DNA of 46,305 nucleotides from a virus (lineage: Duplodnaviria > Caudoviricetes): IMG/VR virus record IMGVR_UViG_3300030376_005538, positions 1-46,305 of that record; one strand, given 5' to 3'. The position numbers were made by a program, and so were the translations under genes. The notes beneath the pieces are model-generated. The model did not search any database. It saw only the letters and a program-made list of their open reading frames with translations, and had not been told where the DNA came from. Positions 1 to 46,305 of this stretch are shown in pieces; the stretch's first letter is position 1, and the number at the start of each line of letters is the position of its first letter.

Positions 1-3000
1 ATTGCAGCCCTAAACTTGGAAAGCACTTCTATCAGACCAGCACGATCACTCACGCTCATTCTGTCTGCGAGTCTGTTTTTCTTGCTCACGAGCCCCCAGA
101 ATGCTGATGATAGTGACTCCATTTTGCTGAGGCTAAACTCAACTGAAGCTCCTGCCATGCCAGCCCACTGATTTGTTATCATGGACTCAAAGAAGCTGTT
201 CAACAGTTCTTCTTCTTGAGCTGCTGTTAGCTTAGTAATATCTGGCATCCCCCTTTCATTAAGCTGATCGGAAGTGAGATTGTAGTCAATTAGAGTAGCA
301 TTTATCCAGCCAGAAAGCATTGCATTTCCTCCTCTCTTTCCGAGGTCGTGCAGCTCTTGAACAAGGGCCTTTCTGTGGGTTTCGTTTTCATAAACCTCTC
401 TAAGGCCTGCGTGCCCAAGCTCGTGAATAACGGCTTTTGAGCTTGTTTCTGGGCTAACAATAATGCCAACAATCTTGCCGTCTTGAGTTACTGCAAGGGC
501 CTCAACCTCAGACACAGAAATGCCATTTTCTTCCGCGTATGCAATAACATCTTTATCCTGCTCAAAAGCCTTTCTAGATCCGTGAGCAGTGGTGTATGCG
601 TTATTTGAAATAAACGGAGCAACACTTTTTAACAAATCAATGACTCCTTCTTGGAATCTAGAGTTAAACTCCTCATCATCCACCTTTCCCTCCATATCCA
701 AGGTGCCATCTTCTAGGGCTCCCTTAATTATAAGCACATCGTTTTCCCTTGCAATTTGAGCGTCGAGATCATCGTCGTACTCCTTCATTCCCTCTTCCGC
801 CTCATTTTGAAGTGACTCAGTCTCTGGGTCTGGCTTAGACGTAAGTCCCTGAAGCTCAGCAACCTCTTCTGGGGTGGCTGGTCTCTCAGTCATGACTTGT
901 TCGAGCTGATTGCCTTGACCGTCCCTTGCCTTAAATGTTACTGGCTTGCTGAGGGCTTTTGCAGCATCCCCTTTCAACTCCTCCATTCGCTGAACCGCCT
1001 CCTCGATGTTTCCGTGGATACGGTCTTGATCTTGTTTTCTTTGATTTTCGTCTTCTATTTCGGATGCCGCATCGTATTCAGCCGACAGTCTTTGCATGAT
1101 TGTGTTCAGGGAAATCATGCTGTAAGCAATCTGCTCATGCTCCCTTACCAAAGTATCTGCCTGATCAACAGCAATCTTGTCTTTTTCTGTAAGTCTGTTT
1201 TGAAGCATTTTAGCTTCGTCCATCATAGAAGCCCTAGTAGACTCTGGGAGGTTTTTATTCATCAACAATCTGTTGATGTTTATCATCCTCTGCGCGTCGG
1301 CGCTGTTCTTTTTCTCCTGATTTCTTATGGTTTGCTGAAGATTGTAAACCGTAACAAATTCAGGATTTTGCGCTAGGCCATCTGCAATCATTTTTTCTTG
1401 CTTGGCAATGCCAACGCCAGTCATGACCGTAGACCCAGCTGGAGCCATCATAACACCCATCATGTAATCGTGCTTGGATTGCTCCATAGCTTCATTCCAG
1501 TTCCACTGCTTACCCGTGATAAGGCTTTTGTTGTATGACTGCCACAAGCCAGTCACGACCTCTGTCAACCCCTCCTCTGGAAGGTTTATGGCTTGAGAGC
1601 CAAAGTATCCGATTAGGTAGTCCTTAAAACGACCCATTCCAGACGCCTTGATTGTTCCGTCCCCCCACTTGCCAAGCAATCCTGTAAGGCGGTTGGCAAG
1701 AAACTCTGGAACCCCCTCTGCCAACCCATCACCTATGGCGTGACCATAGATCTTAAACTCACTTCTGTCCACCTTGATACCAAGGTCCTCAAACGTGTTT
1801 GCTTTACCCATAAACCTGGCCTCTGAAAGCATGTTCATGGCTTCGGTTGGATCAATGCTGTTCCCCTCAGAGTCGGTGTAATTGTCGTACAGGTACCTTT
1901 CCTTTTCGTTGGAAATGATATCCAAATACTTGGCTCCATAAGACCTGATACCCCCGACAATTCCCGCAGAGGCCTCTTGCAATCCAATGCCCCTAATGAT
2001 TCCTCCAGCCCCGCCCTTAAACCCACCGAGAGATCTTCCCCCGCTAAGCGTTACGGCTGCAAACTGATTGTACAAGTTGCCAGGCATAGACTCAGAAGCA
2101 TCCATAAACTCCTCCCTAGCAAAGCTGTCTCCGAGACCAACCAAGTAGGCAAGACCGTTGATGGTCTTCAGGTCGTAATCAATCAGGTCTTCTGCTGAAA
2201 TGTCCATGTATGCTGAGTCGCCAAACTTTTCATACATGGTTCTGTTCATAACTTGTTGAGACCTAAGAGATTTAGCGTCCTCAAGCGATGAATTAAAAGT
2301 GTTGGCCCAAGCTTCAGATACGCCCTCAAGCTTACCACCGCTTACAAAGTCAAACAAAGACAAGACAACGCCACCAATGTCTTTGCCCAAGGTGGCTGTG
2401 CCCGCGCCAAAGCTTACTCCAAAATCCTTTAGAAAAGAGTTTACTCCGCCAGCATAGTTGTCTCCAGTAAGGTCTATCTTGAGGTTGTGGCGATCAAATA
2501 TGTGTCTTTCTGCTGCCTGAAGCTGCTCTAAAGACTGATCCTTAAAGGTGTTCTCAATCATGAAATCTCTAAGAAATCGAGACTCAAAAAACACATCGTA
2601 GCTCTCGTTTCTTCTGGCTATCTCATTGAGTGCCAGCATGTAGGCCTTATTCGTTCTAAGTTTTGCGGGATCTATGTCTTCGACATTTCTTCCGCCAAGA
2701 ACCTGCTCCACAACTTCCGTTGGAGACATTCCATCGTACATTTCAAGCCCCTGCCCAAAGGTGGTCAAAGGCTCGTTCATCATCTCAGTATAAGCGGAAT
2801 CTTCGGCCCTGAGTGCTGCATACTCCTCTGGCTTATCCTGCATAAGCTCCACCAAGTCGAACATCCCAAGATCTCCAACGTGCATGTTGCCAATGTTTCT
2901 TTGCTCCCCTGTAAAAGCGGTCCAAACAAAGGGCTGGGCTACGTTCTCGGGCATTCGATTTGTGTTAGGGGCGTTTTCCCTGACACCATCCATGTATGCG

Positions 3001-3782
3001 TCGTTGATAAGCTCTGATTTTTTCCCTTCAGAAATTTTTTGAGACTCTACCTCAATGTGCTTTTGAGCATCATCAAGCCACGTTTTCTGCTGCTTTTGAG
3101 TCAGATTATAAATCTCTACATCTTTGTTGTACTTCGGGAGAATAGCATTGTATTCCTCAGCGTTTTCCAAAAAACGAGTAACCGCCTCTGGATCATACAC
3201 CTCATCGTATGTTGCTTCATCCCAAGAAACCGTAGGTCCTGGGGCACTTTCCCCTGGCATCAGTATATCCTGATTGAGCTCAATCGGTGCGTTTTTCAGG
3301 ACTTTTTTTGAAAGAGGGGCGAGAGGCTGCCCATGGTCTTTCATCCATTGCATGTTCTCGGTGAACCTGGGTGTGGGCATAGCGCCCAACACAGAGTCCG
3401 ATTCCAGGTACTCCATGGTTGCCGAACTTCTATCCTGCTCTTGTGCCGCGTCAAGCTCTGCTTGTTGACCCTTCGTTAAGGTCTTGTTGTTGTATATGTC
3501 AGTGTACCTCAGGTCTTGCTCATTGCTCAAGCCCACTGCGTTCCCATCAATCTCACCCAGATCTCTACCGATCTGCATTTTGTCATCAAAAGAAGGAGTC
3601 ATACTACCCCCTGCCTCTTCAAGTCTTTTGTTAAAGATGGGCTCCCACGCATCTCTTGTGTATGTCTTGTCGAGTTGCTTTGAGAGTTGGTCCCAAGAAG
3701 TGCCCAGGTCCAGTGCCGATTGAATATCACTATTTATCAGAGACTCCTGATACGAGGGTCTCTTCGCAGCGCGAATTGCCAT
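1..3782 (-). CDS. Giant virion/ejected (cargo) protein, N-terminal >1260 aa, truncated by the window edge; contains a zincin HExxH motif
   Basis: Absent from the ORF track, consistent with no stop inside the window. ATG at 3782 gives MAIRAAKRPSYQESLINSDIQ and the same frame is open at base 1 (..DRAGLIEVLSKFRAA). VIHELGHAGLR at ~402-431. Gly/Ala-rich hydrophobic segments. Position follows two cargo-type genes. Confidence 0.8.
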   Translation of the reverse strand, partial: MAIRAAKRPSYQESLINSDIQSALDLGTSWDQLSKQLDKTYTRDAWEPIFNKRLEEAGGSMTPSFDDKMQIGRDLGEIDGNAVGLSNEQDLRYTDIYNNKTLTKGQQAELDAAQEQDRSSATMEYLESDSVLGAMPTPRFTENMQWMKDHGQPLAPLSKKVLKNAPIELNQDILMPGESAPGPTVSWDEATYDEVYDPEAVTRFLENAEEYNAILPKYNKDVEIYNLTQKQQKTWLDDAQKHIEVESQKISEGKKSELINDAYMDGVRENAPNTNRMPENVAQPFVWTAFTGEQRNIGNMHVGDLGMFDLVELMQDKPEEYAALRAEDSAYTEMMNEPLTTFGQGLEMYDGMSPTEVVEQVLGGRNVEDIDPAKLRTNKAYMLALNEIARRNESYDVFFESRFLRDFMIENTFKDQSLEQLQAAERHIFDRHNLKIDLTGDNYAGGVNSFLKDFGVSFGAGTATLGKDIGGVVLSLFDFVSGGKLEGVSEAWANTFNSSLEDAKSLRSQQVMNRTMYEKFGDSAYMDISAEDLIDYDLKTINGLAYLVGLGDSFAREEFMDASESMPGNLYNQFAAVTLSGGRSLGGFKGGAGGIIRGIGLQEASAGIVGGIRSYGAKYLDIISNEKERYLYDNYTDSEGNSIDPTEAMNMLSEARFMGKANTFEDLGIKVDRSEFKIYGHAIGDGLAEGVPEFLANRLTGLLGKWGDGTIKASGMGRFKDYLIGYFGSQAINLPEEGLTEVVTGLWQSYNKSLITGKQWNWNEAMEQSKHDYMMGVMMAPAGSTVMTGVGIAKQEKMIADGLAQNPEFVTVYNLQQTIRNQEKKNSADAQRMININRLLMNKNLPESTRASMMDEAKMLQNRLTEKDKIAVDQADTLVREHEQIAYSMISLNTIMQRLSAEYDAASEIEDENQRKQDQDRIHGNIEEAVQRMEELKGDAAKALSKPVTFKARDGQGNQLEQVMTERPATPEEVAELQGLTSKPDPETESLQNEAEEGMKEYDDDLDAQIARENDVLIIKGALEDGTLDMEGKVDDEEFNSRFQEGVIDLLKSVAPFISNNAYTTAHGSRKAFEQDKDVIAYAEENGISVSEVEALAVTQDGKIVGIIVSPETSSKAVIHELGHAGLREVYENETHRKALVQELHDLGKRGGNAMLSGWINATLIDYNLTSDQLNERGMPDITKLTAAQEEELLNSFFESMITNQWAGMAGASVEFSLSKMESLSSAFWGLVSKKNRLADRMSVSDRAGLIEVLSKFRAA

Positions 3783-3785
3783 GTC

Positions 3786-5399: not shown

Positions 5400-6883
5400 C
5401 ACTTTCTAAATTGAGGTTGCGCCAACAAAGATCCCATATAATCTGCGAGTTTCAAAGCCGCATCTATTTCTTCTTTCGATCTATTTCTTTTCACCTTTGT
5501 GCCCATGTTGGCGTATAGGTTTTCTTCGCCCCCCATGGAGTCCATGGTGAGGTTTTCAATCATGCTGGACATTTCGTTATTAAAAATAAGCTCATCACCA
5601 GTAGTAACCGCCTGAACCATGTCGTTATCTTGAATGTCCCTATACGACTGAATTTTGCCAGAGTCAAGTCCAGACTTAAGATCTTCTTGATCAATCAGCA
5701 CTTGGTCATTGCCTGTTTCTGGCTTGTTTGGGTCTCCATGATTGAATTCACCTTTTGTTCGATCAACCATTCCGCCATCCTCTTTGGATAGATACCGAGT
5801 CGCTCTCCCTCCGTCCTCCATAAACTTACCTCCTGAGTTAAGGAAGTATTCGAGATTGATAAGAGCATCAATCTTACCGCCTCCCCTACCCTCAGGGATC
5901 GCTGGAGCGCTAGTGGCAGCGTCTGTCTCACCGCCTGTGTTAGAGGGATCTGGAGCGTCACCGTCATTCTCGCCCTCTTCAGGGGCGGGGTCATTAGAAG
6001 GCTTTTGAATCTCCTGCATCGTATCCCTCATAAAGTCTCTTGACCGATATAGCGCTTCAGTGGTAGAGTGTGAAGATTTTATAAAGTCACCGAGGTAGTT
6101 TCCACCACCTTCTGCAAGAGTTTTAACTCTTCCCCCTTCCTCGGCGTCTTCGAAACTAATCCCTGCGGCTGCAGCGCTAACACCAGCAGACGCTATGTCT
6201 CCTCCCAGCTGAGCCGTTCGAGCAGCATTGGTTACACTAGCTTGAAGTGGCATGGCAGTGGCCTGATATCCAAGGTCGAATCCTTGATCCTGAGCGTCGA
6301 ACATGAACTTTTGCAGAGCATCTTCTTTTGCCTGCATGTACTGATTCTTGAAGTTTGCGTACTGCTGATCAGCCATGTTCTGAGCTGCAGCATTTTTTGC
6401 ATTGATGTCAGCCTCCATGCCGCCTACGGCAAGCTTGGCATCGACATCGTCCTTAGCAAGCTCTGAGGCTGTTTGCTTAACGCCCTGCTTGTATTGCTGG
6501 GTGGCCTTGGCGCTCGCGTATGCCTTGAGTCGAGGATCGGCGCTAGAGCCAGCAATAGCGGTAGCCATAGCTGCATCAGCCCCCTCCATGTAATTCTTCA
6601 TGGCTTCGTCGCTACGAGCATCGTCTAGAGCGTCGTAGGCGGTCTGAGGCATCTTTACGTCCTCTGGGTCAACCCTTTCTATAGGAATCGGTATATCTCC
6701 TGATCGGAGAGACTCCAATTCGTCCATCATGGTATTAGCTCTCTGCTGAAGAACGTCTTCCTGAGCGTTCAGTTCTTCAGCAAGCTTTTCCGCAAGTTCT
6801 TTTTCTCTTTTGTTTGCGGATGCCGTTGAGATACCGTTTACGATAAGGCCCCCAGCTATTACCGCTCCTATAATTATTGGCAT
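5399..6883 (-). CDS. Putative ejection/pilot-type cargo protein, 494 aa
   Basis: N-terminal hydrophobic Gly/Ala helix (MPIIIGAVIAGGLIVNG), Ala/Gln-rich coiled coils, several xxxGG motifs; directly downstream of the tail stabilisation gene. Confidence 0.65.
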   Translation of the reverse strand: MPIIIGAVIAGGLIVNGISTASANKREKELAEKLAEELNAQEDVLQQRANTMMDELESLRSGDIPIPIERVDPEDVKMPQTAYDALDDARSDEAMKNYMEGADAAMATAIAGSSADPRLKAYASAKATQQYKQGVKQTASELAKDDVDAKLAVGGMEADINAKNAAAQNMADQQYANFKNQYMQAKEDALQKFMFDAQDQGFDLGYQATAMPLQASVTNAARTAQLGGDIASAGVSAAAAGISFEDAEEGGRVKTLAEGGGNYLGDFIKSSHSTTEALYRSRDFMRDTMQEIQKPSNDPAPEEGENDGDAPDPSNTGGETDAATSAPAIPEGRGGGKIDALINLEYFLNSGGKFMEDGGRATRYLSKEDGGMVDRTKGEFNHGDPNKPETGNDQVLIDQEDLKSGLDSGKIQSYRDIQDNDMVQAVTTGDELIFNNEMSSMIENLTMDSMGGEENLYANMGTKVKRNRSKEEIDAALKLADYMGSLLAQPQFRK

Positions 6884-6911
6884 AATGTGGTGTTTTCTAC
6901 AAAATTAAACA

Positions 6912-9900
6912 TTATCTTCTTTTGGTTCTACGCCTTGCGGCTGATTTTGTTGAAGTGGTAGATGATTTGATGTCTACATCATAATCGACCTCAATTCCAA
7001 AAACATGATTTTCTGCAAGACTCGACGTTTCGCACTCAACCTCAAGGAATCTTCCCCTCACCTTAGTGCCCTCTCCAGCGCCTTCTGGATATCTAGAGTA
7101 AATTGTTTTGATTCTTTTTAGGTCTTCATTAAGGTCCCCGCTAAACAATCCTAGGCGGACAAGCCAAGTAAGATATGTCACCTCCTGCAGGGCATCATCA
7201 AAATTGATTTCTACATCCGTCACCTCACTAAAGCCCTCGCTTGTAGATCCAAATGCCCCCAAGAAAGCAAGAAGGTCTGCAGTGCTCACCGAGTCGTCGT
7301 CATTGAAGTCACCAACTAGGTCTTCCCCAACAATGTTGAACTGATTTAAGAACGCCAAAAGGTCCGAAACAGTTATCGCTCCATCAGGCCCATTGGGCCC
7401 AATGTCAAAAATTTCATTCTCCCACACCTGACCAGTTTCTGTGACTGTTTCCCCGTAATTCAGGTAGTTCAGCGCAAAGCAAAGCTGTACGTTTTGAGAC
7501 CCAAAAATTCCAAACGATCCGTCAGATCCGTCTGTAAAGTAGTAAGAGTAAAGAGGTGAGAACATGAGGTCCATGAAACTCGTAAACCCTGTATCTATAT
7601 CTTCTTCTGGCCACAAGTATCCGCCCGACAGCCATGGGTCTCTGACATTTAAGAAGCCCTCTCCCAAGCCTCCCTCTACACCCCCGTGGAGAAATTCATT
7701 CTCATTGTAAAAGGTTTTCCATTCGTCAATTCTTGCTGGAGGTATGTTCTTGAAGTCAGCCTCAAAAACGATGTTATAGATTTCAAAATCCTGACCACCT
7801 ATTGGGCTGTATCCAACGTTGCTTAAGGACGTAACCCTATCGTAAATAACATCAACGATTCTCCACCTGGCTTGCTCTGCTGCATTCTGAGTGCTGTATG
7901 CTGAATTAAGAGCGATAACACCGTTTAGCTTGTTTATACCAAGGGGTCTAGTTCTCCTCATTTTAGTTTCTTCTCCATCCCAAGGGGTGGATGGCTCTCC
8001 AACCTCAAAACATCTTGATGCGTCCCCCTGAGGGAACGCGGTTTGGAAAACGGGGTGACCCGCTGGGTATGGCATTTTCACCTGAAACTTGTTGCCGCCA
8101 ACCCACTTGAAATTAGGAATAAACTTGCACCACTTACCATCGTGATCATTGATCGGGAAAGTCGGTATTTGATACATCTGAGAATAGTCCAGCGAAGACG
8201 GATTGAGTACAGACTCTTGTTGAGGAGGAATTGGTCCGTACCACTTTTCGTAGTATCTCTTAAAGTTTGAAAACGGAATTGACACCTCAATGTCGTTGTC
8301 CTCATTGATCAACTTTCCAGTCTTAACTTTTACGTTCCATTTATCTTCTGAGTCTATGGCAACAGCATTAAATGTTTTTGACTCATTTAGCCTGTCGTTA
8401 ATCACAGATGTGAATTTAGCTTTTGCTGCCTTGCCGTGTATGTAGTTCGGACTAACTTCGTCCGAGCTGTGAAGCCAAGCGTATGTGCTTGTTTGATCCC
8501 CACCGTTGTCAGGGTGCTGCACCCCCGTGGCATGGAATGATATCAAATTGTCCCCAAGAGATACGTAGTCAGACGAGCTAAAGCTATACCTTGTTTTCCA
8601 AAACTTTTGAGTTTTTAGATCAAAAGCGAGAGTCTTAAGAGGCTCGTAGTCTGCTTCAGAGTCAGGCCAAAGTTGAGCATCACCCAGCTTATGCAGTGTA
8701 ACCAAAAGCTCTCTATTTCTAGGGTCGTACCCAGTGGATATCTTCAAAGGAGTTCGAGGCCCGTAAAGGAACTTTGAAAGCTCCTCCTTAAAGTAGCTAG
8801 AAACATTAAGGTTGGATATAATAACAGGGGCCTGCCTGTCCCTAAGCATAATAATTTCAGACTTGTCTGGGTTGACAAAGAAGTAGTTTTGATCTATGCG
8901 AATTACAGACTCAGGGTGTTTGCCCACACCTCCGTTATACTCCCTTTCCTTCTCCGTACCGTAGACCTTTGTTGCAGCAACAAGAATGTCCTCCTGGAGG
9001 GAGCTAATCATGTTTCTGTTGTACGGAACTCTAGTCACCTGATTTTCGAAAAAGACGTTCATAAACGAGCCGTCATAGTCTATTTTCTGTATTGATCCAA
9101 ACGTAGTGTTCAAATCCTTAAAGTTTCCTACTGGAGGAAATGAAAGCCAGTTTATGTCGTAAGAGCCTGGGGCGGTAAGCTCGGAAAAAGAAATTGAGCT
9201 TTCTCGTCTTGTCTCCGTTTGATTAGGGCTGACGAAATGAAGTCTACCGTAATTTTTGGATTTTGACACATAGAAGTCCGTAAATCCATCAGCCTCCAAG
9301 TAATACAGAGCAAAATCATCACTTCTTTCTGGGTAATTTGAGGTTCCAGAAACCACTGGAACATACTCCCCCAATGAATCGTCGTAGTCTTGAATGTTTA
9401 CAGGAACACCCCTAAAATACACGTCACCCTGAAACATATTTATGGTGTTGAACTCGTGAGTTCTTGAATCAGTTCCCCCGTTGGTGACCCTCCCTCCGTA
9501 GTTAGTCTCGTAATAAGGCCTAGCCTCATCTGAAAGCGCGTCCTTTGGCCTTACTATTTCTACAATGCACCTATTCTTCCAGAAGTCTGAAGAGTTTGAT
9601 ACGTCGCTAATAGAGAAGTTTGTTGCCGACGGATTGTTTTCCACCACAAGCATTTGACCGCTTCTAGCTATGTTAAAAGTTGGGTCAGAAAGCGGTCCAG
9701 AGTCGGTAAAAAATAGTGGGTGATCTTCCGTAGACAGCTGAGGAGACAGCGTAACAAGATCAACGATTGGAAACTCCCAAGACTGATCTGGGTACACCAC
9801 ACCCCCCGTGGAGTCAGAGTAGTAAAGAACTCTTAGAAAATCACCCTCAGCAAACCTATACAGCTCCTTTGACCCATCGTACTGATTTACAGCTGGGTAC

Positions 9901-36723: not shown

Positions 36724-38088
36724 TCAGTATTTTCCTCCGAACCTGTACGTTCGGCCTCCCAAGCTCATCATCTTGTCAATTTTATCCAACATAAACTTAG
36801 GTATTTTCCCTCCGCCTCTGTAGGATGTCTTGTCAATTTTATCCAACATAAACTTGGGTATCTTCCCTCCGCCTCTGTAGGCTCTACCGCCCATACCTCT
36901 TTGCGCCTCCATCTGCTGCATCATCTTAGCCAACTCGATCGCCCTAGCTTTTTCTTCTGGGTTGATCACGGTACCACCCCCTGGCTGAATAACGCTTGGA
37001 TCTGGTTCTTGGTAGCGCCCACCTCCCAGAACGTTGAAAGTATTGTCTTGAATAGTGGGTCTTACGCCGAGGTCGATGCCTGACGGACCTGGACCACCTG
37101 TTGGTGTTGGGTCTTTGAGGGGTCTCATGCCTCCCTGAAGGCTGGGCTGAGGTCTATTCATGGGGATTTGACTTGGCCCTATTCCTGGAATAGATGCCAT
37201 GGGATCACCTGGGCCAGACTGCATTGGTGGGTCTGGGATAATTGTCTCTGGAACTTCAGTCTCTGGAGACACATCTCTTCTGTCACCTCTTCCCAGCTGA
37301 GCATACCACGTCAGATCGTCGGTGTTATCCCCCTTAATAGAGCCATCATTCTTGATTCTTCTTTTGTTTGTCTGAAGAAACTCAGCACCAGTCGGTACAT
37401 CAAAGACCTTGAAGTTGAACTTACCAGCGTCGTCGACGGTCCCGAGGTCTTTTGTGTCTGCAGAGATCATGGCTCCAAGGGGGATCTTGCCCTCAACAAC
37501 ACCAGTTGCGAAGATATCACCAGCTTCTCCGTCGTACCCTCTGTCAAGCATCGCATTATCCATCACGCCGACATCAAACTTACCGCTATTTATTCTAGAG
37601 TAAAGGTTAGCAGTCTCTGTTGCCACGGGAAGATCAGCTTGTCTAGCCAATCTAGTAAGTCTGTTAGTCTGAGTTTCGGAGTGATTTGGGTCCGCAGCTT
37701 GAGACAACTGATATACGGTTGCATTCTCAAGTCCTCCAGGAATGTTCTCTTTGGCCCATGCCACCTTTTTAGGATCGCTTTCGATCTGAGACAGAAGGCC
37801 GCCTCTTAAAGGAGAGAGGTTTTCCTCGATTTTAGCCTGAGCAGTAGAGAAGGGGCCTCCTTCTCCGTTGACACCACCTTCATCATAAATCTTTCCGCCC
37901 ATTCCGTAGTCCTTCATAGCCCTCATGCCCATTTGAGCGTACATATCCTTATCCTGGGGCCCCATTGCCTTCATGCCCACAGCGGCATACTTGTCAACTT
38001 CAGCTGGGGTCACCCCGAGCATTTTGGCTACGGCCTCTTTTCCCTGAGATGTCTGACTGAGAGCCCTTTGTCCTTTGTTCAGTTTCAT
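36724..38088 (-). CDS. Probable internal virion protein with many xxxGG motifs, 454 aa
   Basis: YGMGG, YDEGG, YRGGG x2, MSLGG, YRFGG; Pro/Gly-rich linker. Confidence 0.65.
   Translation of the reverse strand: MKLNKGQRALSQTSQGKEAVAKMLGVTPAEVDKYAAVGMKAMGPQDKDMYAQMGMRAMKDYGMGGKIYDEGGVNGEGGPFSTAQAKIEENLSPLRGGLLSQIESDPKKVAWAKENIPGGLENATVYQLSQAADPNHSETQTNRLTRLARQADLPVATETANLYSRINSGKFDVGVMDNAMLDRGYDGEAGDIFATGVVEGKIPLGAMISADTKDLGTVDDAGKFNFKVFDVPTGAEFLQTNKRRIKNDGSIKGDNTDDLTWYAQLGRGDRRDVSPETEVPETIIPDPPMQSGPGDPMASIPGIGPSQIPMNRPQPSLQGGMRPLKDPTPTGGPGPSGIDLGVRPTIQDNTFNVLGGGRYQEPDPSVIQPGGGTVINPEEKARAIELAKMMQQMEAQRGMGGRAYRGGGKIPKFMLDKIDKTSYRGGGKIPKFMLDKIDKMMSLGGRTYRFGGKY
36771..36881. repeat. Two-copy tandem repeat, 57-nt period
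   Basis: 36771-36824 and 36828-36881 differ at 2 positions; encode YRGGGKIPKFMLDKIDK twice. Confidence 0.9.
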
Positions 38089-39928: not shown

Positions 39929-40688
39929 ACAGCTATTCCTGTGTCTAAAACAAAGATACCGATTCTTTCTTTTCCAAATTCAACAGTGATGAGGCCATGT
40001 TTGACTCAAACACTGTGAGATCGCGAAGTTATAAAACAAATTTTGAAAAGTCAACCGTCAAGTAAGGGTTTATGTAACGTCGCTTACGGTATTGATTATG
40101 AGAAAGTTAGAATCATACACCCGTCTCAAGGCATATAAAGGGACTGAATCAAGATCCGTCAAAAAAGGGGGTGAGTTATGTTCACCGTGGGGATTATATA
40201 TATTTGCACACGCTGCCTTATGAAGTCCGAAACGGACTTTGCCGACCCCCCCCTGCTACTTTGTAGCAGTTTTGCGTACAACTTTCAGCTTTTTCTGACT
40301 GAGTATCAGTCAGTTAGCATCGGTTACCTCGACCAACGCATGAGACTGCAGGAAGCATCGTGCTGTCTGGCAACGTTGGACAATCCCCCACCTAAACCCT
40401 TGGTTTAGATATGTAGCCCCAATAGAGGGGAAACACTATTAGCATTTCAATACTTCGTATTGAGGTTGTTGCCAAACGGAATTATAGTTTCAAACTCACT
40501 ACTTCGTAGTGAAGTCAATCGGCTTTCTTCACACACACAATACCCTGCGAGTCAACTAGTTGACCCTGCGGTATCGCGACCTTTACTCTAACCCTGTTAG
40601 AGTACTTCTGGCCAAGGTAGAGATATGTATTAGAAAGAATGAATTCTATGAATTCTTTCTAATACATTATCTCATAAACAGTTTTCAA
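39929..40688. other. Non-coding control region between the divergent late and early blocks (possible genome end/origin)
   Basis: No credible ORF; coding strand and composition switch here; several hairpins. Confidence 0.6.
40620..40673. repeat. Long imperfect inverted repeat (early hairpin, divergent copy)
   Basis: GAGATA-TGTATTAGAAAGAAT..ATTCTTTCTAATACA-T-TATCTC, just before the first early gene. Confidence 0.8.
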
Positions 40689-41201
40689 ATGTCAAACTTC
40701 CAATTTTCCGACTGCAAGAAGGCAGTCAACCAAGCCCTCTTCCGTCCAACCGCAGACCGCAAGGCAGCCGCAATCAAAGCTTTGCAAGAAGCTTTGGAGT
40801 TGGTCACTAACCTCGAAGAGGTTAAGGACAAGCCGAAGGCTTCCAAGACGAAGAAGCGTCGTCGTAAGACGACGAAGAGGACACCTTCACAGAAGGTGGC
40901 AGACCACATGGACAAGGCTTCGATGAAGACCAACGAAGTTGGTCCAGTCAAGCCTTCGAAGAAGGCTAAGACAGCTTCCGTCAAGGAAGCTAAGGCATCT
41001 CTGAAAGAGATGGACGCCAAGAACAAGGCGAAGAAGCAATCGAAGATTGAGGCCAAGAAGGTCGCTATGGGGGTCAGTGAAACTGACCGAGTAGCTTCCT
41101 TGGAAGCTAAGATTGAGGCCTTGACGCAGTGCTTGGCCATGCACATGGAGACTACGTCTCTCCCCTCTGCTATCGAAGATAGCAATAATGTTCCCTTCTA
41201 A
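40689..41201 (+). CDS. Lys/Ala-rich early protein (histone H1-like composition), 170 aa
   Basis: Start MSNFQFSDCKK; KPKASKTKKRRRKTTKR and KPSKKAKTASVKEAK tracts. Confidence 0.75.
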   Translation: MSNFQFSDCKKAVNQALFRPTADRKAAAIKALQEALELVTNLEEVKDKPKASKTKKRRRKTTKRTPSQKVADHMDKASMKTNEVGPVKPSKKAKTASVKEAKASLKEMDAKNKAKKQSKIEAKKVAMGVSETDRVASLEAKIEALTQCLAMHMETTSLPSAIEDSNNVPF

Positions 41202-41207
41202 TCGTTC

Positions 41208-41289
41208 TAGTATCTCTTACTACACACTCTCTTCATTTATGAAGAGTGTGTAGTTAGAGAGACTTACCACTCAAAATTTCAAACTTCAA
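41208..41289 (+). repeat. Early hairpin repeat, copy 1
   Basis: TAGTATCTCTTACTACACACTCTCTTCATTTATGAAGAGTGTGTAGTTAGAGAGACTTA, followed by AAACTTCAA. Confidence 0.95.
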
Positions 41290-41300
41290 ACCCCATACCT

Positions 41301-41441
41301 ATGGATAAGCAACTGCGCCGTCAGCTCATCGCTGACCTCCTGACCTCTTCGTTCGACTTCGACCTCCTCACATCCACATCCGAGTGGGACGAGCTGACCT
41401 GCGACGAGCAAATGACCTTGGCCGACCTCATCGACTGCTGA
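41301..41441 (+). CDS. Small acidic early protein, 46 aa (not in ORF track)
   Basis: MDKQLRRQLIADLLTSSFDFDLLTSTSEWDELTCDEQMTLADLIDC; early-type codon usage and conserved leader. Confidence 0.7.
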   Translation: MDKQLRRQLIADLLTSSFDFDLLTSTSEWDELTCDEQMTLADLIDC

Positions 41442-41451
41442 AAGCAGTACA

Positions 41452-41504
41452 GGTACACTGACGAGTCCTGAATGGACGAAACACCCCTTTGGGGTGTCTG
41501 TATC
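41452..41504 (+). ncRNA. Type I hammerhead ribozyme
   Basis: GGTACA CTGACGA GTCC-TGAAT-GGAC GAAA CACCCC-TTT-GGGGTG TC|TGTATC: full catalytic core, three stems, GUC cleavage triplet at 41496-41498. Confidence 0.92.
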
Positions 41505-41523
41505 AAACTTCAATTCATCTACG

Positions 41524-41889
41524 ATGACAAAACTTCAAGAACTATACTTCACCATCCAAGGATGGGACGGGTTCAGTGTCAAGCACGACCTGAACGAGTA
41601 CGGAGGCGGTGGTTACGCTGTGGGCGGAGCGTCCAAGTGCTTTGAAATCAAAGCCGACGACCTCTCATGGAACCACTTTGCCTACACCATCATGCCCCAC
41701 TTGCGTGAGCTGACACGGGGCAAAGCATCAAACCTCCTCCTTGGAGGATGGGTCGATGACGACGGCATGGCCTACATCGAACTCTCCACCATCGTGCAAG
41801 ACCGCAGGCAGGCGATTGACTTGGGTGTGGAGCGCGAAGAGAAAGCCATCTACGACCTTTGGAACAACTGCGAAATCAAACTCACATGA
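41524..41889 (+). CDS. Early phage protein, 121 aa
   Basis: Start MTKLQELYF; DGFSV, GYAVG, LGGWVD..AYIELS..AIDLG..KAIYDL. Confidence 0.75.
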   Translation: MTKLQELYFTIQGWDGFSVKHDLNEYGGGGYAVGGASKCFEIKADDLSWNHFAYTIMPHLRELTRGKASNLLLGGWVDDDGMAYIELSTIVQDRRQAIDLGVEREEKAIYDLWNNCEIKLT

Positions 41890-42056
41890 ACACATACGCA
41901 TACTACGTGTACTACGGACGCGATCGAGACGACTGGCGCAAGGACACCATCCAAGCGTCAACCCTTGACGGAGCAATCCGCAAGGCACAGGACGAGTGGG
42001 CTACAAGTGGCTACACGGTCTGGAACAAGACATTCAAACTCATTGACAATCAGTAA
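41886..42056 (+). CDS. Small early protein, 56 aa
   Basis: MNTYAYYVYY..; ATGA overlap with the upstream gene. Confidence 0.7.
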   Translation: MNTYAYYVYYGRDRDDWRKDTIQASTLDGAIRKAQDEWATSGYTVWNKTFKLIDNQ

Positions 42057-42079
42057 ATTAACCCCTCAAACTTCAACAA

Positions 42080-42202
42080 ATGGTACAGCTACTATTCAAC
42101 ATCAACCTCGCATTGGCGGGAGCCTGCGGACTTGTGGGCATCATCATGCTGACAGGCATGGCAATGGACTCTGTTAAGAACTTGAAAGACAAGCAGTTAT
42201 GA
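42080..42202 (+). CDS. Small single-TM membrane protein, 40 aa (not in ORF track)
   Basis: MVQLLFNINLALAGACGLVGIIMLTGMAMDSVKNLKDKQL; ATGA overlap with the downstream gene. Confidence 0.6.
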   Translation: MVQLLFNINLALAGACGLVGIIMLTGMAMDSVKNLKDKQL

Positions 42203-42387
42203 ACGCCCTCTTCAACCGATTCTTCAACCCGTTCCGTGGCCTTGCACACGACGAGTTGGTGCTCTCGTACCTTCACATGAGCGACGCAAACGACTACGAA
42301 GGCGTAGCGATGGTGGCCGACGCCTACGATGAGGACACTTTCATCGACCTCAGACCCTTCGGCATCTCCACTCGGGACTTCAAATAA
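42199..42387 (+). CDS. Small early protein, 62 aa
   Basis: Early-type codon usage; ends just before hairpin copy 2. Confidence 0.7.
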   Translation: MNALFNRFFNPFRGLAHDELVLSYLHMSDANDYEGVAMVADAYDEDTFIDLRPFGISTRDFK

Positions 42388-42390
42388 TGT

Positions 42391-42470
42391 TAGTATCTCT
42401 TACTATACACTCTCTTCATTTATGAAGAGTGTATAGTTAGAGAGACTTACCACTCAATGTTAAACTTCAA
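42391..42470 (+). repeat. Early hairpin repeat, copy 2
   Basis: Near-identical to copy 1, with a compensatory C-G to T-A change in the stem. Confidence 0.95.
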
Positions 42471-42481
42471 ATTTCCATATC

Positions 42482-42712
42482 ATGGACAACTTCTTCAAAC
42501 GCCCCGTCGGTGCGGCGGTGCTCTACCTCAACGACTTGCACTTCGGCAAGCATCTCAATGACCTCAATCGGTGTGCTCGGCTTGTGCCGAAGGACGTAAA
42601 AGGCATGGCCTCCATGCTGTCCAACACCACATTCATGAGCGACGACGCGAAGGATGCGGTCATTGACACTCTTGTTGAATGGGCAAACGATGCCGAAAAC
42701 TCCGAAGCATGA
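42482..42712 (+). CDS. Small early protein, 76 aa
   Basis: Follows the conserved leader; ATGA overlap downstream. Confidence 0.7.
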   Translation: MDNFFKRPVGAAVLYLNDLHFGKHLNDLNRCARLVPKDVKGMASMLSNTTFMSDDAKDAVIDTLVEWANDAENSEA

Positions 42713-43023
42713 AATTCAAACTAGACTTCAAGACCACGCTACCACACGTAGCTATGACCACGGCATACGACATTGACATAGACCGAGCCACGGGCGTAGA
42801 GATGGACACCACCGTAGAGATTGACCCCAACCACGGAACAGGTGGGTGGTACGAAACCTACGACCTTGACACGGGAGGTGACCGCTTCTATGCAGGAGGA
42901 ATCCTCGAAGTGTATTGGGATGACAACGGAGATGTACGCCTCACGGGGTACGATGGATGCTTCGAACTCCCTGAATTTATCACCGATGCTCTTGAAAAGA
43001 AGGGCGTAATCATTGACCTATGA
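42709..43023 (+). CDS. Acidic early protein, 104 aa
   Basis: Start MKFKLDF; YAGGIL..LTGYDGCFELP motif. Confidence 0.7.
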   Translation: MKFKLDFKTTLPHVAMTTAYDIDIDRATGVEMDTTVEIDPNHGTGGWYETYDLDTGGDRFYAGGILEVYWDDNGDVRLTGYDGCFELPEFITDALEKKGVIIDL

Positions 43024-43214
43024 GCGATTACAAAAATCACGACACGTGCCACAAGTGCGGAGGCACTGGCATCTTCCTCGAATCCCAAGAGGTTGGCTAC
43101 GGCCAACACGGAACATCCATGTGGCTCTACGACTACGAATGCGAGGACTGCCAAGCAACGTGGGACATAAGCCTTGAACTCACCCCTGTATCACGAGAAA
43201 ACCACGAATCATGA
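43020..43214 (+). CDS. Zinc-ribbon early protein, 64 aa
   Basis: CHKCGG and CEDC pairs. Confidence 0.7.
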   Translation: MSDYKNHDTCHKCGGTGIFLESQEVGYGQHGTSMWLYDYECEDCQATWDISLELTPVSRENHES

Positions 43215-43411
43215 CACAAGAACAATGCGAACGTGCAGTCAAAGCACTGCAAGAGTGCGGACTCACCGCCTCCCATGTGCAGGGTGCGCCTGACGACCAC
43301 GGCGTGTGGTTGGACAGCGTATGGAACGAGCAATTACAAGAAACATTCAGCTTCCGACTCCACGACGAGGAAGTAGAGTGGTGGGGAATCGAAACAACAA
43401 AAGACAAATGA
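43211..43411 (+). CDS. Small early protein, 66 aa
   Basis: ATGA overlaps on both sides. Confidence 0.65.
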   Translation: MTQEQCERAVKALQECGLTASHVQGAPDDHGVWLDSVWNEQLQETFSFRLHDEEVEWWGIETTKDK

Positions 43412-43554
43412 CACAACACGAAAGACTATCCCTCCGACAGACCCACTGCGGTGGCTTCGAACGTGCGCTCATCGAGGCGTGGTTCAAGGCAGACATGGGC
43501 AACAAGGCTACCCTCGAAGAAGCCTTCAAGAACACCAACTTCGACCTTACATAG
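43408..43554 (+). CDS. Small early protein, 48 aa
   Basis: MTQHERLS..GGFERALIEAWFKADMGNKATLEEAF. Confidence 0.7.
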   Translation: MTQHERLSLRQTHCGGFERALIEAWFKADMGNKATLEEAFKNTNFDLT

Positions 43555-43637
43555 AGAGTGTTAGTATATATACTCTCTCTGAACGTAGTGAAGAGAGTAT
43601 ATATACAACACCTCTCAACAACATTTTCAAACTTCAA
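43554..43637 (+). repeat. Early hairpin, divergent copy
   Basis: GAGAGTGTT-A-GTATATATACTCTCT-CTGAACGTAGTGA-AGAGAGTATATATAC-AACACCTCTC, followed by TTTCAAACTTCAA. Confidence 0.85.
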
Positions 43638-43648
43638 ATCCAATACCA

Positions 43649-43909
43649 ATGGACAACATCAAAGACATGACGAACGACGAGTTCATCAGCCACCTCATGA
43701 CGGGGTACAACAAGCACGGAGCACTCGTGCAGATGGTGGTCATGGACTGCCTTCAGCGTGGTCTTGACCACTACATCTCAGCCAAGGAGCAAATCCTTGA
43801 GGAGCACAACAAGTCCCGTGAAGACGGACGTATCTCACTCATCAACATGGAGGCATGGGTCTCCTGCTGTGAGGACACTAAGCAACGAATCGAAAACAAG
43901 TACTCATGA
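43649..43909 (+). CDS. Early protein, 86 aa
   Basis: MTNDEFISHLM..HGALVQMVVM..INMEAW. Confidence 0.7.
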   Translation: MDNIKDMTNDEFISHLMTGYNKHGALVQMVVMDCLQRGLDHYISAKEQILEEHNKSREDGRISLINMEAWVSCCEDTKQRIENKYS

Positions 43910-44049
43910 AAAACATCATCGAAGTAATTGTCGAACTCTCCCGTATGCAGGGACAGGCCATCGACAGGGCGCAGGCAGAGGCCATCAACAATGCCGTAGA
44001 GAAAGCCCACGACAAGTGGCAAAACGAACAAAAAGATTTGGTTGATTGA
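43906..44049 (+). CDS. Small helical early protein, 47 aa (not in ORF track)
   Basis: MKNIIEVIVELSRMQGQAIDRAQAEAINNAVEKAHDKWQNEQKDLVD; ATGA overlap. Confidence 0.65.
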   Translation: MKNIIEVIVELSRMQGQAIDRAQAEAINNAVEKAHDKWQNEQKDLVD

Positions 44050-44061
44050 AGTTTGACCACA

Positions 44062-44125
44062 GGGGGGACGCCTTTCGGGATGCAATTCGATCGGATGCGA
44101 GTGTGAAACGTCACACCTTCCCCCC
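44062..44125 (+). ncRNA. Structured RNA element 1 (closed multibranch)
   Basis: GGGGGGA/TCCCCCC closing stem with an internal GTGTGA-AACG-TCACAC hairpin. Confidence 0.5.
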
Positions 44126-44135
44126 GATTTTTTCA

Positions 44136-44257
44136 AGGGAGCGCACAACACATGGCAGATGACCCTCGTGGTAGATGACCGACGTGTGGGTGCGTACATC
44201 AAGGCATCAAGCGGTGCCAAGGATGGCAGTTGTGTTCGAATCCCAACCTCCCTTCTA
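44136..44257 (+). ncRNA. tRNA-mimic RNA A
   Basis: AGGGAG/CTCCCT acceptor-like stem, GTTGTG-TTCGAAT-CCCAAC T-arm, then T-CTA; long internal hairpins replace D and anticodon arms. Confidence 0.55.
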
Positions 44258-44291
44258 TTAGTCGGCGGACGTTAAACGCATACTAACAAGT

Positions 44292-44364
44292 GACCTTGAA
44301 TCCCGTCAAGTGTGGATGCGGCAGGGTCGAGATATATTCCACACGCCCCGATACCTCGTGGGGT
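44292..44364 (+). ncRNA. Pseudoknotted structured element
   Basis: GACCTTG/CAGGGTC stem; loop GTGTGGA pairs with downstream TCCACAC; then a GCCCC/GGGGT hairpin. Confidence 0.45.
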
Positions 44365-44380
44365 AACAAGCATCAAGGGA

Positions 44381-44448
44381 GAGTGCGGGCAAGGAGAGCA
44401 ATGCCACTGAACGGGTGACACCTAGACGTTCAGGCTCCACCTGCATTC
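44381..44448 (+). ncRNA. Long interrupted stem-loop element
   Basis: Nested helices GAGTGCGGG/CCTGCATTC, GGAG/CTCC, CTGAACG/CGTTCAG. Confidence 0.5.
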
Positions 44449-44455
44449 GTTACAT

Positions 44456-44587
44456 GGCAGTGACACTAGCGATGGAGGCATCGCATTGGTGTGTACACAG
44501 CAATATCTACTCCTTCTACCCTTTACCGAGGGCTTATGGCAACGAGTATGAGCTTGTGTGGTGGTTCGACTCCACCCTCTGCTACTA
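44456..44587 (+). ncRNA. tRNA-mimic RNA B
   Basis: GGCAGTG/CTCTGCT acceptor-like stem, perfect GGTGG-TTCGACT-CCACC T-arm, then A-CTA; internal ACACTA-GCGATG/CATCGC-TGGTGT hairpin and a branched ACACAG/TTGTGT arm. Confidence 0.6.
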
Positions 44588-44589
44588 TC

Positions 44590-44674
44590 TAGTATCTCTT
44601 ACTATACACTCTCTTCATTTATGAAGAGTGTATAGTTAGAGAGACTTATACGACTCAAAATTTTCAAACTTCAA
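44590..44674 (+). repeat. Early hairpin repeat, copy 3
   Basis: Hairpin identical to copy 2, followed by TTTTCAAACTTCAA. Confidence 0.95.
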
Positions 44675-44685
44675 TTTAATCCATC

Positions 44686-44910
44686 ATGCTACAAGACATG
44701 AACACACGGCAACTTGCCGAAGCAATTCAGGAGGACCTGAGCAAGGTCAGCCTCATCCTCAACTTCAGTCGCCACCGAGAGGTGCCACAACTAATGAGTA
44801 TGTCATGTGCGGCCTTGGAAGGCAAGCACTCATGCAAGACCCCTCTTGCCACACTCATCTCCAACATCGACGAGGCATCTGACCTCATCATCGAAAAAAC
44901 CTACAAGTAA
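44686..44910 (+). CDS. Early protein, 74 aa
   Basis: Follows the conserved leader; TAATG coupling downstream. Confidence 0.7.
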   Translation: MLQDMNTRQLAEAIQEDLSKVSLILNFSRHREVPQLMSMSCAALEGKHSCKTPLATLISNIDEASDLIIEKTYK

Positions 44911-45503
44911 TGAAACAATATGCAGTAATACACGCTGTCGCAGGACTCTTCGAGGGGTACAGCGACACCACTTGTGAGTTCTTCTCCAAGCGGGGATTCG
45001 CAGACAAGCACCTCAAACAAGTACTTGACGAATACCGCAAGGATGAGATGTGTGTCAGGATTGAGCATGACGGAGACAGCACCTATGTCACCCTATCCCC
45101 TGACGCTGACGACTACGCCGCTTGCGTCCCATCTGACATGGAGCACGACGACTACGTGGCAGAGAACATGGACGACGTGAGTGTCGAGGTGTTCCGCACC
45201 ATCGAGCTTGACCTGTCCAACCGCTCCGACTCCACTGAGTCATGTTGGCTGACGTGGAACCAACTAGATGCCACCCAAGCATGGGACTACACCCCCTTGT
45301 GTATGTCCTTGGTGGCTCGTGTCTCTTCCGATGTCATGGACAACACAGGCAAGTACACCGACTATGCGTTGACTTTGCAACAGCTCACGGAGTTCATCTC
45401 TGCTGTGTACTACCGCAAGCACGCATTCATCGACGTAGACGACTACACCATGCACGCTTTCCGTATCCCCAAACCCAAAAACTCTGACAGCTATGACGCC
45501 TAA
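44910..45503 (+). CDS. Acidic early protein, 197 aa
   Basis: Long ORF with early-type codon usage. Confidence 0.75.
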   Translation: MKQYAVIHAVAGLFEGYSDTTCEFFSKRGFADKHLKQVLDEYRKDEMCVRIEHDGDSTYVTLSPDADDYAACVPSDMEHDDYVAENMDDVSVEVFRTIELDLSNRSDSTESCWLTWNQLDATQAWDYTPLCMSLVARVSSDVMDNTGKYTDYALTLQQLTEFISAVYYRKHAFIDVDDYTMHAFRIPKPKNSDSYDA

Positions 45504-45717
45504 CCCATACTACATCTACGTTACGCTCCACCTGATGGAGTGCAGTTCGGAATCCTTTGCACAAGAAGCGTGCGACATCAAGTGGGACATCGCATCCGAG
45601 GTGTACCAAAAGTTTCTTGACTCCAAGTACAACGTCGAAACCAAAAGCGAGTACGACTGCATCGAAGAATTTCTCACACACGAACCTATTATCTATGACG
45701 AAGAAACAACTGCTTGA
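45493..45717 (+). CDS. Early protein, 74 aa
   Basis: YQKFLDSKYN..SEYDCIEEFL. Confidence 0.7.
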   Translation: MTPNPYYIYVTLHLMECSSESFAQEACDIKWDIASEVYQKFLDSKYNVETKSEYDCIEEFLTHEPIIYDEETTA

Positions 45718-45916
45718 CCTCATCGCAGAATACCCTGACGATGCAGAGGTAGTAATAGAGGTGCATGACACCACGCTACACGAAGACCTGTACGACTTCA
45801 CGCTAGACCCCATCCAATGGACTCGGTTCAATCACGAAGCGGACAATCCAATGGATTCTTTTGACTACAAAACCATGCACGAGCTACGGCTCTGCCCAAT
45901 CAAGAACGAACAATGA
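45695..45916 (+). CDS. Early protein, 73 aa
   Basis: MTKKQLLDLIAEYPDDAEVVIE, a common phage N-terminal pattern. Confidence 0.7.
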   Translation: MTKKQLLDLIAEYPDDAEVVIEVHDTTLHEDLYDFTLDPIQWTRFNHEADNPMDSFDYKTMHELRLCPIKNEQ

Positions 45917-46026
45917 CTAAAAAAGAAATCATCGAAGACCTCCGCGACAAAGTAGCGGACATCAAATACGACTGTCAAGTAGTGCTTGACATCCTTGACA
46001 CCCTATATCATGAAGACAATGAGTGA
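45913..46026 (+). CDS. Small early protein, 37 aa (not in ORF track)
   Basis: MTKKEIIEDLRDKVADIKYDCQVVLDILDTLYHEDNE; ATGA overlap. Confidence 0.55.
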   Translation: MTKKEIIEDLRDKVADIKYDCQVVLDILDTLYHEDNE

Positions 46027-46261
46027 AGAAACCTTATACGACCTGCGGTGCTACGTCAGCAACTGCTTCAACCACCGTGGATACAAGTCCGACGGCATCA
46101 CTTGGGACGACAGCGGTTACCAACAGCTATCTCGCCTTATGACTACGGAGTACGACCTCGACAACAACGACGTGGACGAGGTGGTCAGCGAAATCGAGGA
46201 CATCCTGTCCAAGTTTATCATGGAGAACTCCCCAAAATTTACAGACAATGAAGAACACTAA
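46019..46261 (+). CDS. Acidic early protein, ~80 aa
   Basis: MSEETLYDLRCYVSNCF..; start could instead be 46010. Confidence 0.65.
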   Translation: MSEETLYDLRCYVSNCFNHRGYKSDGITWDDSGYQQLSRLMTTEYDLDNNDVDEVVSEIEDILSKFIMENSPKFTDNEEH

Positions 46262-46305
46262 AGCATACGACGTAACCAACCGAATCATCGACTACGAGAT
46301 GGGGC
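46248..46305 (+). CDS. Early protein, truncated at window end
   Basis: MKNTKAYDVTNRIIDYEMG.. Confidence 0.55.
   Translation, partial: MKNTKAYDVTNRIIDYEMG

Follow-up and report, generated by a model that had tools for sequence, protein, structure and literature searches.

Long hairpins that alternate with a host promoter before the early genes of a marine podovirus, as candidate DNA start signals

Five hairpins at the heads of early genes

The DNA analyzed here (the window) is the entire 46,305-nucleotide (nt) phage contig of IMG/VR record IMGVR_UViG_3300030376_005538, found in marine metagenomes, in which five long hairpins precede small rightward genes. Structural genes run leftward from position 39928, and many of these late genes are preceded by TAnnTTTG boxes, the −7 portion of the Bacteroidota promoter consensus TTG-N19-21-TAnnTTTG. 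The small genes run rightward from 40689 and are called early because of this layout. Given a terminase that is 40% identical to those of the Flavobacterium elemo phages and Maribacter phage Panino, along with type IX secretion sorting domains carried by relatives of the phage, the host is probably a member of Bacteroidota. The hairpins and the first early gene are as follows.

40620..40673, plus strand: hairpin 1, 54 nt, class C apex GA-AT-TCT-AT-GA, 15 nt 5′ of the first early gene
41209..41264, plus strand: hairpin 2, 56 nt, class A apex (CT bulge, TCA-TTTA-TGA), one compensatory pair apart from copies 3 and 5
42392..42447, plus strand: hairpin 3, 56 nt, class A
43554..43616, plus strand: hairpin 4, 63 nt, class B apex (CT bulge, GA-AC-GTA-GT-GA), a C(GNA)G triloop over putative tandem G·A pairs
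44591..44646, plus strand: hairpin 5, 56 nt, class A, directly 3′ of a tRNA-like 3′ end
40689..41201, plus strand: first early gene, 170 amino acids, no Pfam family, the anchor for the comparison of upstream regions given below

A first-pass annotation had placed five hairpins at these positions, shortly before start codons, and each is borne out by its folding (z = −4.9 to −6.6, with 0 of 200 shuffles equally stable for each). Stems of at least 12 perfect base pairs (bp) number five within 40500–46305, with none in 100 shuffles, and a scan for further copies found none in 1–40499. The spacing from hairpin to next ATG is 15, 36, 34, 32, and 39 nt for copies 1 to 5 (the ATG for copy 2 is at 41301). 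The compensatory pair that had been noted within the near-identical set is present, and the hairpins indeed lack a U-tail.

Other parts of that description need adjustment. An upstream stop or RNA end had been assigned to four copies; copies 2 to 4 do begin 7 and 4 nt past an upstream stop, or overlap the stop, whereas copy 5 begins 6 nt past what is probably a tRNA-like 3′ end (44563–44584), on which ARAGORN and Rfam are silent. The left arm had been described as longer near the apex. This reflects a 2-nt CT bulge in copies 2 to 5 that is missing in many relatives, and the apex of copy 1 is symmetric if tandem G·A pairs are allowed. TAnnTTTG elements, reported as absent, are absent at and between the hairpins, but one occurs 420 nt upstream, as TATATTTG at 40199. 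It was rejected as an early promoter because it has no −33 box and is not kept there in the 16 other regions examined. Rfam matches to the hairpins are generic and far below cut-off, and the sole passing element in the window is a tRNA.

Hairpin or host promoter before the first early gene

A set of 155 sequences homologous to the first early gene, including the best 80 of 247 from a metagenome scan, was reduced to 83 distinct upstream regions by removing 8 without the anchor motif and 3 that were too short and by merging duplicates. A hairpin alone is present in 66 of these regions, a full host promoter alone in 16, and a hairpin with a bare −7 box in 1, and no region has neither. The full host promoter is TTG-N18-22-TAnnTTTG, with its −7 box 48–58 nt before the ATG. 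When sought 140–620 nt upstream, it is found in 0 of the 60 hairpin-first regions that have at least 400 nt. Strong branches force at least four changes between hairpin and promoter on a 79-row tree (4 short rows omitted, few alignment columns) and three on a 33-row tree, so a Fisher value overstates this exclusion, but the swap is recurrent. The proposal of hairpin or cruciform promoters, which formed one half of the first-pass inference, gains strong comparative support from this swap and from the DNA-type pairing described below. A deep promoter-first clade has one hairpin in each of the three genomes whose stretches were read, versus up to seven in hairpin-first genomes, which is a weak comparison because it involves a single clade.

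A second set of hairpins was defined by position before the first gene, with every promoter-less region passing. An exact −7 match (TAnnTTTG) occurs in 0 of these 33 hairpins and in none of the window's five. The idea of a host promoter hidden in the stem was rejected on this ground and because a right-arm TAnnnT is inconsistent in non-Bacteroidota phages. The same result bears on the possibility that the hairpins are terminator, pause, or RNA-stabilizing stems that serve the upstream gene, similar to the PeSL cassettes of T4-like phages. Copies 2 to 5 begin where an upstream gene or RNA ends, as such stems would, but copy 1 has no upstream gene, there is no U-tract, G·U pairs are avoided, and no host promoter box is embedded, which leaves this explanation highly improbable.

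Pattern scans of IMG/VR retrieved 24, at least about 150, and 32 stretches. Near-complete relatives carry up to seven copies, in the early region only, and in one complete genome (G003, with terminal repeats and seven hairpins) each copy extends from a stop codon, or from close to one, to about 10–30 nt before an ATG. Among 123 distinct apex matches, 86 with long stems were kept and 37 short-stem or chance matches were dropped. In the 86 hairpins, 1985 pairs are Watson–Crick. Most of the 123 mismatches are A·A, T·T, or A·G, and G·T occurs 4 times and A·C 6 times. Their stems comprise 17–34 paired bases (mean 23 bp), and although stem sequence is wholly different between copies, Watson–Crick pairing is kept. 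An operator for a dimeric protein was rejected because stems vary freely even within one genome. Three apex classes recur on the sense strand: class A is TCA-TTT(A/G)-TGA under a 2-nt bulge, class B is GA-AC-(G/A)NA-GT-GA with the bulge present or absent, and class C is variable, with most members ending in GA. Tandem GA/GA would form sheared pairs, and TTTA and TTTG are expected to be stable DNA loops.

The same layout occurs in the unrelated podoviruses G007, G008, G017, G018, G019, G020, and G030. These genomes were reached via the class B pattern, so this apex is present there by construction, and further copies in them that were found without the pattern keep the 3′ (G/T)GA and similar loops. 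The terminase of G007 matches cobaviruses at 60%, the DNA polymerase of G019 matches HMO-2011 at 67%, and G020 has a T7-type polymerase gene downstream. Two hairpins, at 4–42 and about 1190–1256 of NC_021864, occur within the first 8.5 kb of cultured HMO-2011, and behind each come a ribosome-binding site and an open reading frame (ORF) that is not annotated. These ORFs begin at 95 and 1289 (L421). A repeated short palindrome, AGTCCG-N4-CGGACT, follows the two long hairpins at 57–75 and 1260–1276 and stands by itself ahead of gp03 at 1926–1941. No such hairpins were found in the cultured phages phi18:3 (whole), MW202828 (1–50000 of 60850), and Ymer, or in CRP-1 (1–9000), ICBM1 (1–8000), and elemoA (1–34000), the last of which has full host promoters on the early strand.

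Relatives differ by shuffling in the order of their early genes, and some related strains cleanly lack hairpin 5 (window 44587–44661), such that the tRNA-like end is joined to the leader. Together with DNA-type pairing and the precedent of PeSL repeats, which mediate such exchange in T4-like phages (PMC4122927), this pattern would suit DNA landmarks for gene-module exchange or genome entry that have no direct part in making 5′ ends. However, a copy stands before the first gene and is exchanged there for a promoter, orientation and spacing to start codons are fixed, and there is no recombinase family among the 57 scanned ORFs of G003 (those of at least about 95 amino acids). We consider such landmarks quite unlikely. 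Integron attC-like cassettes were rejected, as GTTRRRY ends are inconsistent by eye and no integrase family is found in the same ORFs.

DNA-type pairing and the search for a reader

RNAfold assigns G·U to 9 of 2071 pairs in the 86 apex-pattern hairpins, and to 6 of 495 after clustering to 19. Because those hairpins had been picked by a Watson–Crick score, the count was redone on the 33 position-found hairpins, which gave 4 of 745. The corresponding values are 98 of 550 in 60 phage tRNAs, 28 of 180 in hammerhead stem I from the same phages, and, for five intergenic stretches of T7 that hold RNase III stems (at what we take to be the positions of R0.3–R1.3 on NC_001604), 22 of 104. No wobble-rich stems emerged from an aligner that rewards G·T (75 G·T versus 243 A·C). 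UUCG or GNRA loops cap 0 of 105 hairpin apices versus 15 of 30 hammerhead stem III loops. A cruciform would need strict Watson–Crick pairing, because where one strand has G·T, its complement has A·C. The C(GNA)G loop is described as far more stable in DNA than in RNA (PMC13037366) and as driving extrusion at the N4 promoters (PMC4496689).

The class B apex is also found antisense inside longer ORFs, wherein its stem is 5–9 bp (11 such ORFs). The seven SSLRSE-frame ORFs among them were scanned, and all seven match replication-initiator, primosomal/helicase-loader, or DnaD-like families; the other four overlap long-stem intergenic copies. From this context, the apex inside replication-initiator genes likely has a DNA role. 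One exact match to the 25-nt class B pattern exists among GTDB bacterial genomes, inside a probable replication gene.

In L057, L120, L123, L124, L132–L134, and L260, the class B apex within replication-initiator genes encodes SSLRSE and lies beside short direct repeats, and this form is possibly an origin element common to temperate phages. L075 and L127 have 70-nt tandem repeats containing a stemless class B apex. The apex presumably resembles CGTC-type REP (repetitive extragenic palindromic) repeats. The related single-stranded DNA hairpins described in the text of the Ssn paper (PMC11893778) do not include it.

The other half of the first-pass inference, a virion-delivered RNA polymerase that reads the hairpins, did not gain such support. 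The window carries a truncated gene for a giant virion protein.

3..3782, minus strand: giant virion protein, N-terminal 1260 amino acids (cut by the contig end); a full-length relative ends in an LPD38 domain, and a polymerase motif was not found

Full-length relatives of this protein span 1565 to about 2800 amino acids and end in LPD38. The DFDxD motif was not found in 11 window ORFs (the window's own giant gene being cut at 1260 amino acids), in ORFs of at least 400 amino acids from G001–G005, or in the giant protein of MW202828, and T7-type motif B was not found in giant virion proteins. Pfam recognizes no polymerase family among the 57 ORFs of G003, and a PHROG scan recognizes none in the giant proteins, though the same scan found the T7-type polymerase of G020. 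A PF00940 scan of 18 genomes gave no match anywhere, controls included. The shared C-terminal 937 amino acids were modeled (predicted local distance difference test score, pLDDT, 74) as a mostly helical fold that matches other phage LPD38 proteins. This end has no match in the PDB at E up to 0.001, and another structure search gave generic helical matches with Z up to 8. Searches of the ESM Atlas with the giant protein returned only leads under 0.9 or nothing, and its N-terminal and middle parts were covered by profile and embedding searches. It is unlikely that the giant protein is a novel polymerase. A phage sigma factor as reader was rejected because one is present in only 1 of the 18 genomes searched. 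That genome, G003, has a full sigma-70 family gene in its early region (L043:14460-15326), followed by a hairpin and a TTGACA-type promoter.

There could still be promoters in the style of N4 whose virion-delivered polymerase is too divergent to recognize. The hairpins replace a promoter, their C(GNA)G loop is as in N4, and the giant virion proteins (1200–2900 amino acids) have large parts that belong to no known family. In addition to the missing motifs and families and the predicted helical LPD38-type end, however, the stable loop is on the non-template strand, opposite to that of N4, the stems are three times the length of those of N4, and the apex is common to unrelated phages with unrelated giant proteins. 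We therefore hold this explanation to be very unlikely.

Candidate start signals, RNA processing, and known systems

Position, covarying Watson–Crick stems, avoidance of G·T, sense-strand mini-hairpin loops, mutual exclusion with a full host promoter before the first gene, and the lack of a recognizable phage polymerase together argue that the hairpins are cruciform-forming DNA start signals that replace the host promoter and are probably read by the host polymerase. We give this reading a probability of about 0.5. Several elements among the hairpins bear on how it is to be weighed.

41281..41289, plus strand: leader motif AAACTTCAA, rich in A and C, which lies between hairpin and ATG; further copies at 41505, 42068, 42462, 43629, and 44666
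41453..41503, plus strand: type I hammerhead ribozyme with full core, 23 bits (Rfam cut-off 34), before the same leader motif; 30 distinct copies in relatives
44563..44584, plus strand: tRNA-like T-loop and acceptor 3′ strand, a direct sequence reading, uncalled by ARAGORN and Rfam

Among 133 contexts of the leader motif, 63 have a hairpin in front, 32 have a hammerhead, 1 has both, 4 have a tRNA-like end, and 1 has a promoter; in the other 32, many of which are inside genes, nothing was recognized. A conserved TTGA(C/T)AATCAGTAA(A/G)TTA before the leader in several relatives (window 42040–42064, plus strand) is a fifth kind of element in this slot. The tRNA-like end at 44563 is one of two tRNA-like elements in a 530-nt noncoding block (44060–44590, plus strand), each marked by a T-loop motif (near 44235 and near 44563). 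ARAGORN and Rfam call neither, and the whole block folds no better than shuffles.

The first-pass annotation had named RNase III processing stems, on the precedent of T7, as its other possibility. Such stems would divide a long early transcript into units that are translated separately. RNase III is present in all host phyla, and the intergenic, sense-oriented stem of about 22 bp that such processing calls for is found here. Ahead of the same leader, hammerheads and tRNA-like ends can also take the place of the hairpins. This explanation is weakened by the rarity of G·U (0.5% versus 21% in the T7 sites, where it is typical though not strictly required) and by the missing upstream promoter, because none of the 60 hairpin-first regions has a full one, although a non-consensus promoter is possible. 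Moreover, the hairpin is replaced by a promoter rather than added to one, the same apex is found antisense in replication-initiator genes with stems of 5–9 bp, and conservation is strongest at the apex, while bacterial RNase III recognizes boxes in the stem (PMC3867540). On balance, we consider RNase III processing rather unlikely, but it is the main rival of the start-signal reading.

A number of observations nevertheless weigh against the start-signal reading. RNA cutting also makes 5′ ends here, because hammerheads and tRNA-like ends fill the hairpin slot, and the mean 23-bp stem fits the 22-bp optimum of RNase III (PMC3867540). No more than 1 nt separates the ATG from the stem base in at least a quarter of the hairpins before the first gene, and the right arm holds the ribosome-binding site in G007 and G017, so the 5′ end must lie inside the hairpin. 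This is natural for RNase III, but for a promoter only if the start is within the opened bubble. A metatranscriptome contig from a relative of about 90% identity starts some 130 nt before hairpin 1 and continues through it, as processing of a longer transcript would predict, while farther upstream that run gives no coverage; this evidence is from one study, unstranded, with DNA contamination possible and assembled contigs only. A second RNA-library contig runs across hairpin 2 and also across the hammerhead, so cutting is compatible with a contig that spans the element. At least one hairpin is retained farther downstream in promoter-first genomes. The 33 position-found hairpins form only 5 clusters at 80% similarity, C(GNA)G triloops in 4 of 30 hammerhead loops weaken the loop argument, and homogenization of the arms by template switching could reduce G·T without any DNA function. 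Finally, extrusion is estimated, using textbook constants, to be favorable at a superhelical density of −0.06, borderline at −0.045, and unfavorable at −0.03, which makes it a marginal process at the supercoiling found in vivo.

If the hairpins are start signals, negative supercoiling of the entering genome would extrude the palindrome as a cruciform. The sense-strand arm would stay folded via its mini-hairpin apex (a C(G/A)NA G or TTTA/TTTG loop with tandem G·A), whereas the template-strand arm, whose apex is unable to pair, would melt to give a ready-made bubble, the mirror image of the N4 arrangement. Single-stranded DNA-binding protein would perhaps aid this melting, as described for the weaker strand of N4. 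Bacterial polymerases start on preformed bubbles, and host RNA polymerase would likely start on the exposed template without −33 and −7 boxes, with or without an injected helper, at a site in or just after the right arm. Read-through RNA may also be cut by RNase III, as the two roles are compatible. More tentatively, and with less confidence than in the start-signal reading itself, we propose a structure-only promoter in many podoviruses that lack an early RNA polymerase, wherein the sense-arm DNA hairpin would hold the template open, host polymerases of different phyla would start without sigma boxes, and the same fold would open strands in phage replication origins.

Upstream of the hairpins lies one further feature.

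40188..40600, no strand assigned: noncoding stretch at the early/late divergence, with a conserved GGGGATTATA..CCGAAAC motif and a cluster of short palindromes

Behind the motif, short palindromes are densely packed, and their loops read GAA/TTC, CTAG, or CTTG. Relatives and unrelated podoviruses have comparable stretches, and this one is the probable genome end. The short left-end palindromes were rejected as N4-like promoters, as their GAA loops face either way among relatives. Farther into the late region, one gene ends in a 54-nt direct repeat (36771–36881; two copies, 96% alike).

For abundant marine podoviruses that must start early expression without an RNA polymerase gene or early promoter boxes, the natural swap of hairpin and standard promoter names the element doing the job. 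As a promoter, it would be a DNA structure needing neither a dedicated polymerase nor a sigma-specific sequence; as a processing site, it would represent an uncatalogued family of RNase III substrates with DNA-like pairing. Literature searches for the apex sequences, podovirus palindromes and cruciforms, crAss-like hairpin promoters, and HMO-2011 promoters found no description; their scope was main texts, mostly open ones, rather than supplements (where HMO-2011-type promoter tables are possible) and most subscription papers. The hairpin family is real and is undescribed in the literature searched.

Each known system that we compared shares some of these features. The T7 RNase III sites R0.3–R1.3 are likewise long intergenic stems, near 22 bp, just before early start codons, but they contain 21% G·U and lie downstream of the annotated host promoters A1–A3, whereas the family described here has 0.4–0.5% G·U and its first hairpin has no full host promoter upstream. 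The PeSL cassettes (PMC4122927) likewise recur between the genes of a variable early region in which genes are shuffled, but they combine a promoter with a terminator-like stem, whereas our hairpins have no promoter box or U-tract and alternate with a promoter. The crAss-like phage phi14:2 (bioRxiv 10.1101/2020.03.07.982082) is also a Bacteroidota podovirus whose early genes lack the host promoter motifs that its later genes have. Its gp66, however, has the DFDxD motif that was not found here, its early starts have no common upstream motif, and the word "hairpin" is absent from the main text. Tail parts are related as well, with crAss muzzle matches that stay below cut-off. The mini-hairpin DNA d(GCGNAGC) at the G4 and RSF1010 origins (PMC13037366) has the same loop chemistry, and the class B apex is likewise in replication-initiator genes, but here the apex tops a long stem before genes, its closing pairs are A-T then C-G, and its folding is predicted.

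The promoters P1–P3 of the N4 virion RNA polymerase (PMC4496689) are hairpin-forming DNA at the first-entering genome end, before early genes, with a C:G-closed G-N-A triloop and stem bases that are free provided they pair. In N4 the stable hairpin is on the template strand and stems are 5–7 bp (PMC4496689), whereas here it is on the non-template strand, stems are 17–34 bp, the loop sits on tandem G·A or on a bulge, and 4–7 copies lie between genes with no virion polymerase found. In class B the sense strand reads C(G/A)NA G, opposite C-TAC-G over T·T/C·C on the template strand. By this comparison, the hairpins would work like a hairpin promoter but are not members of the N4 family.

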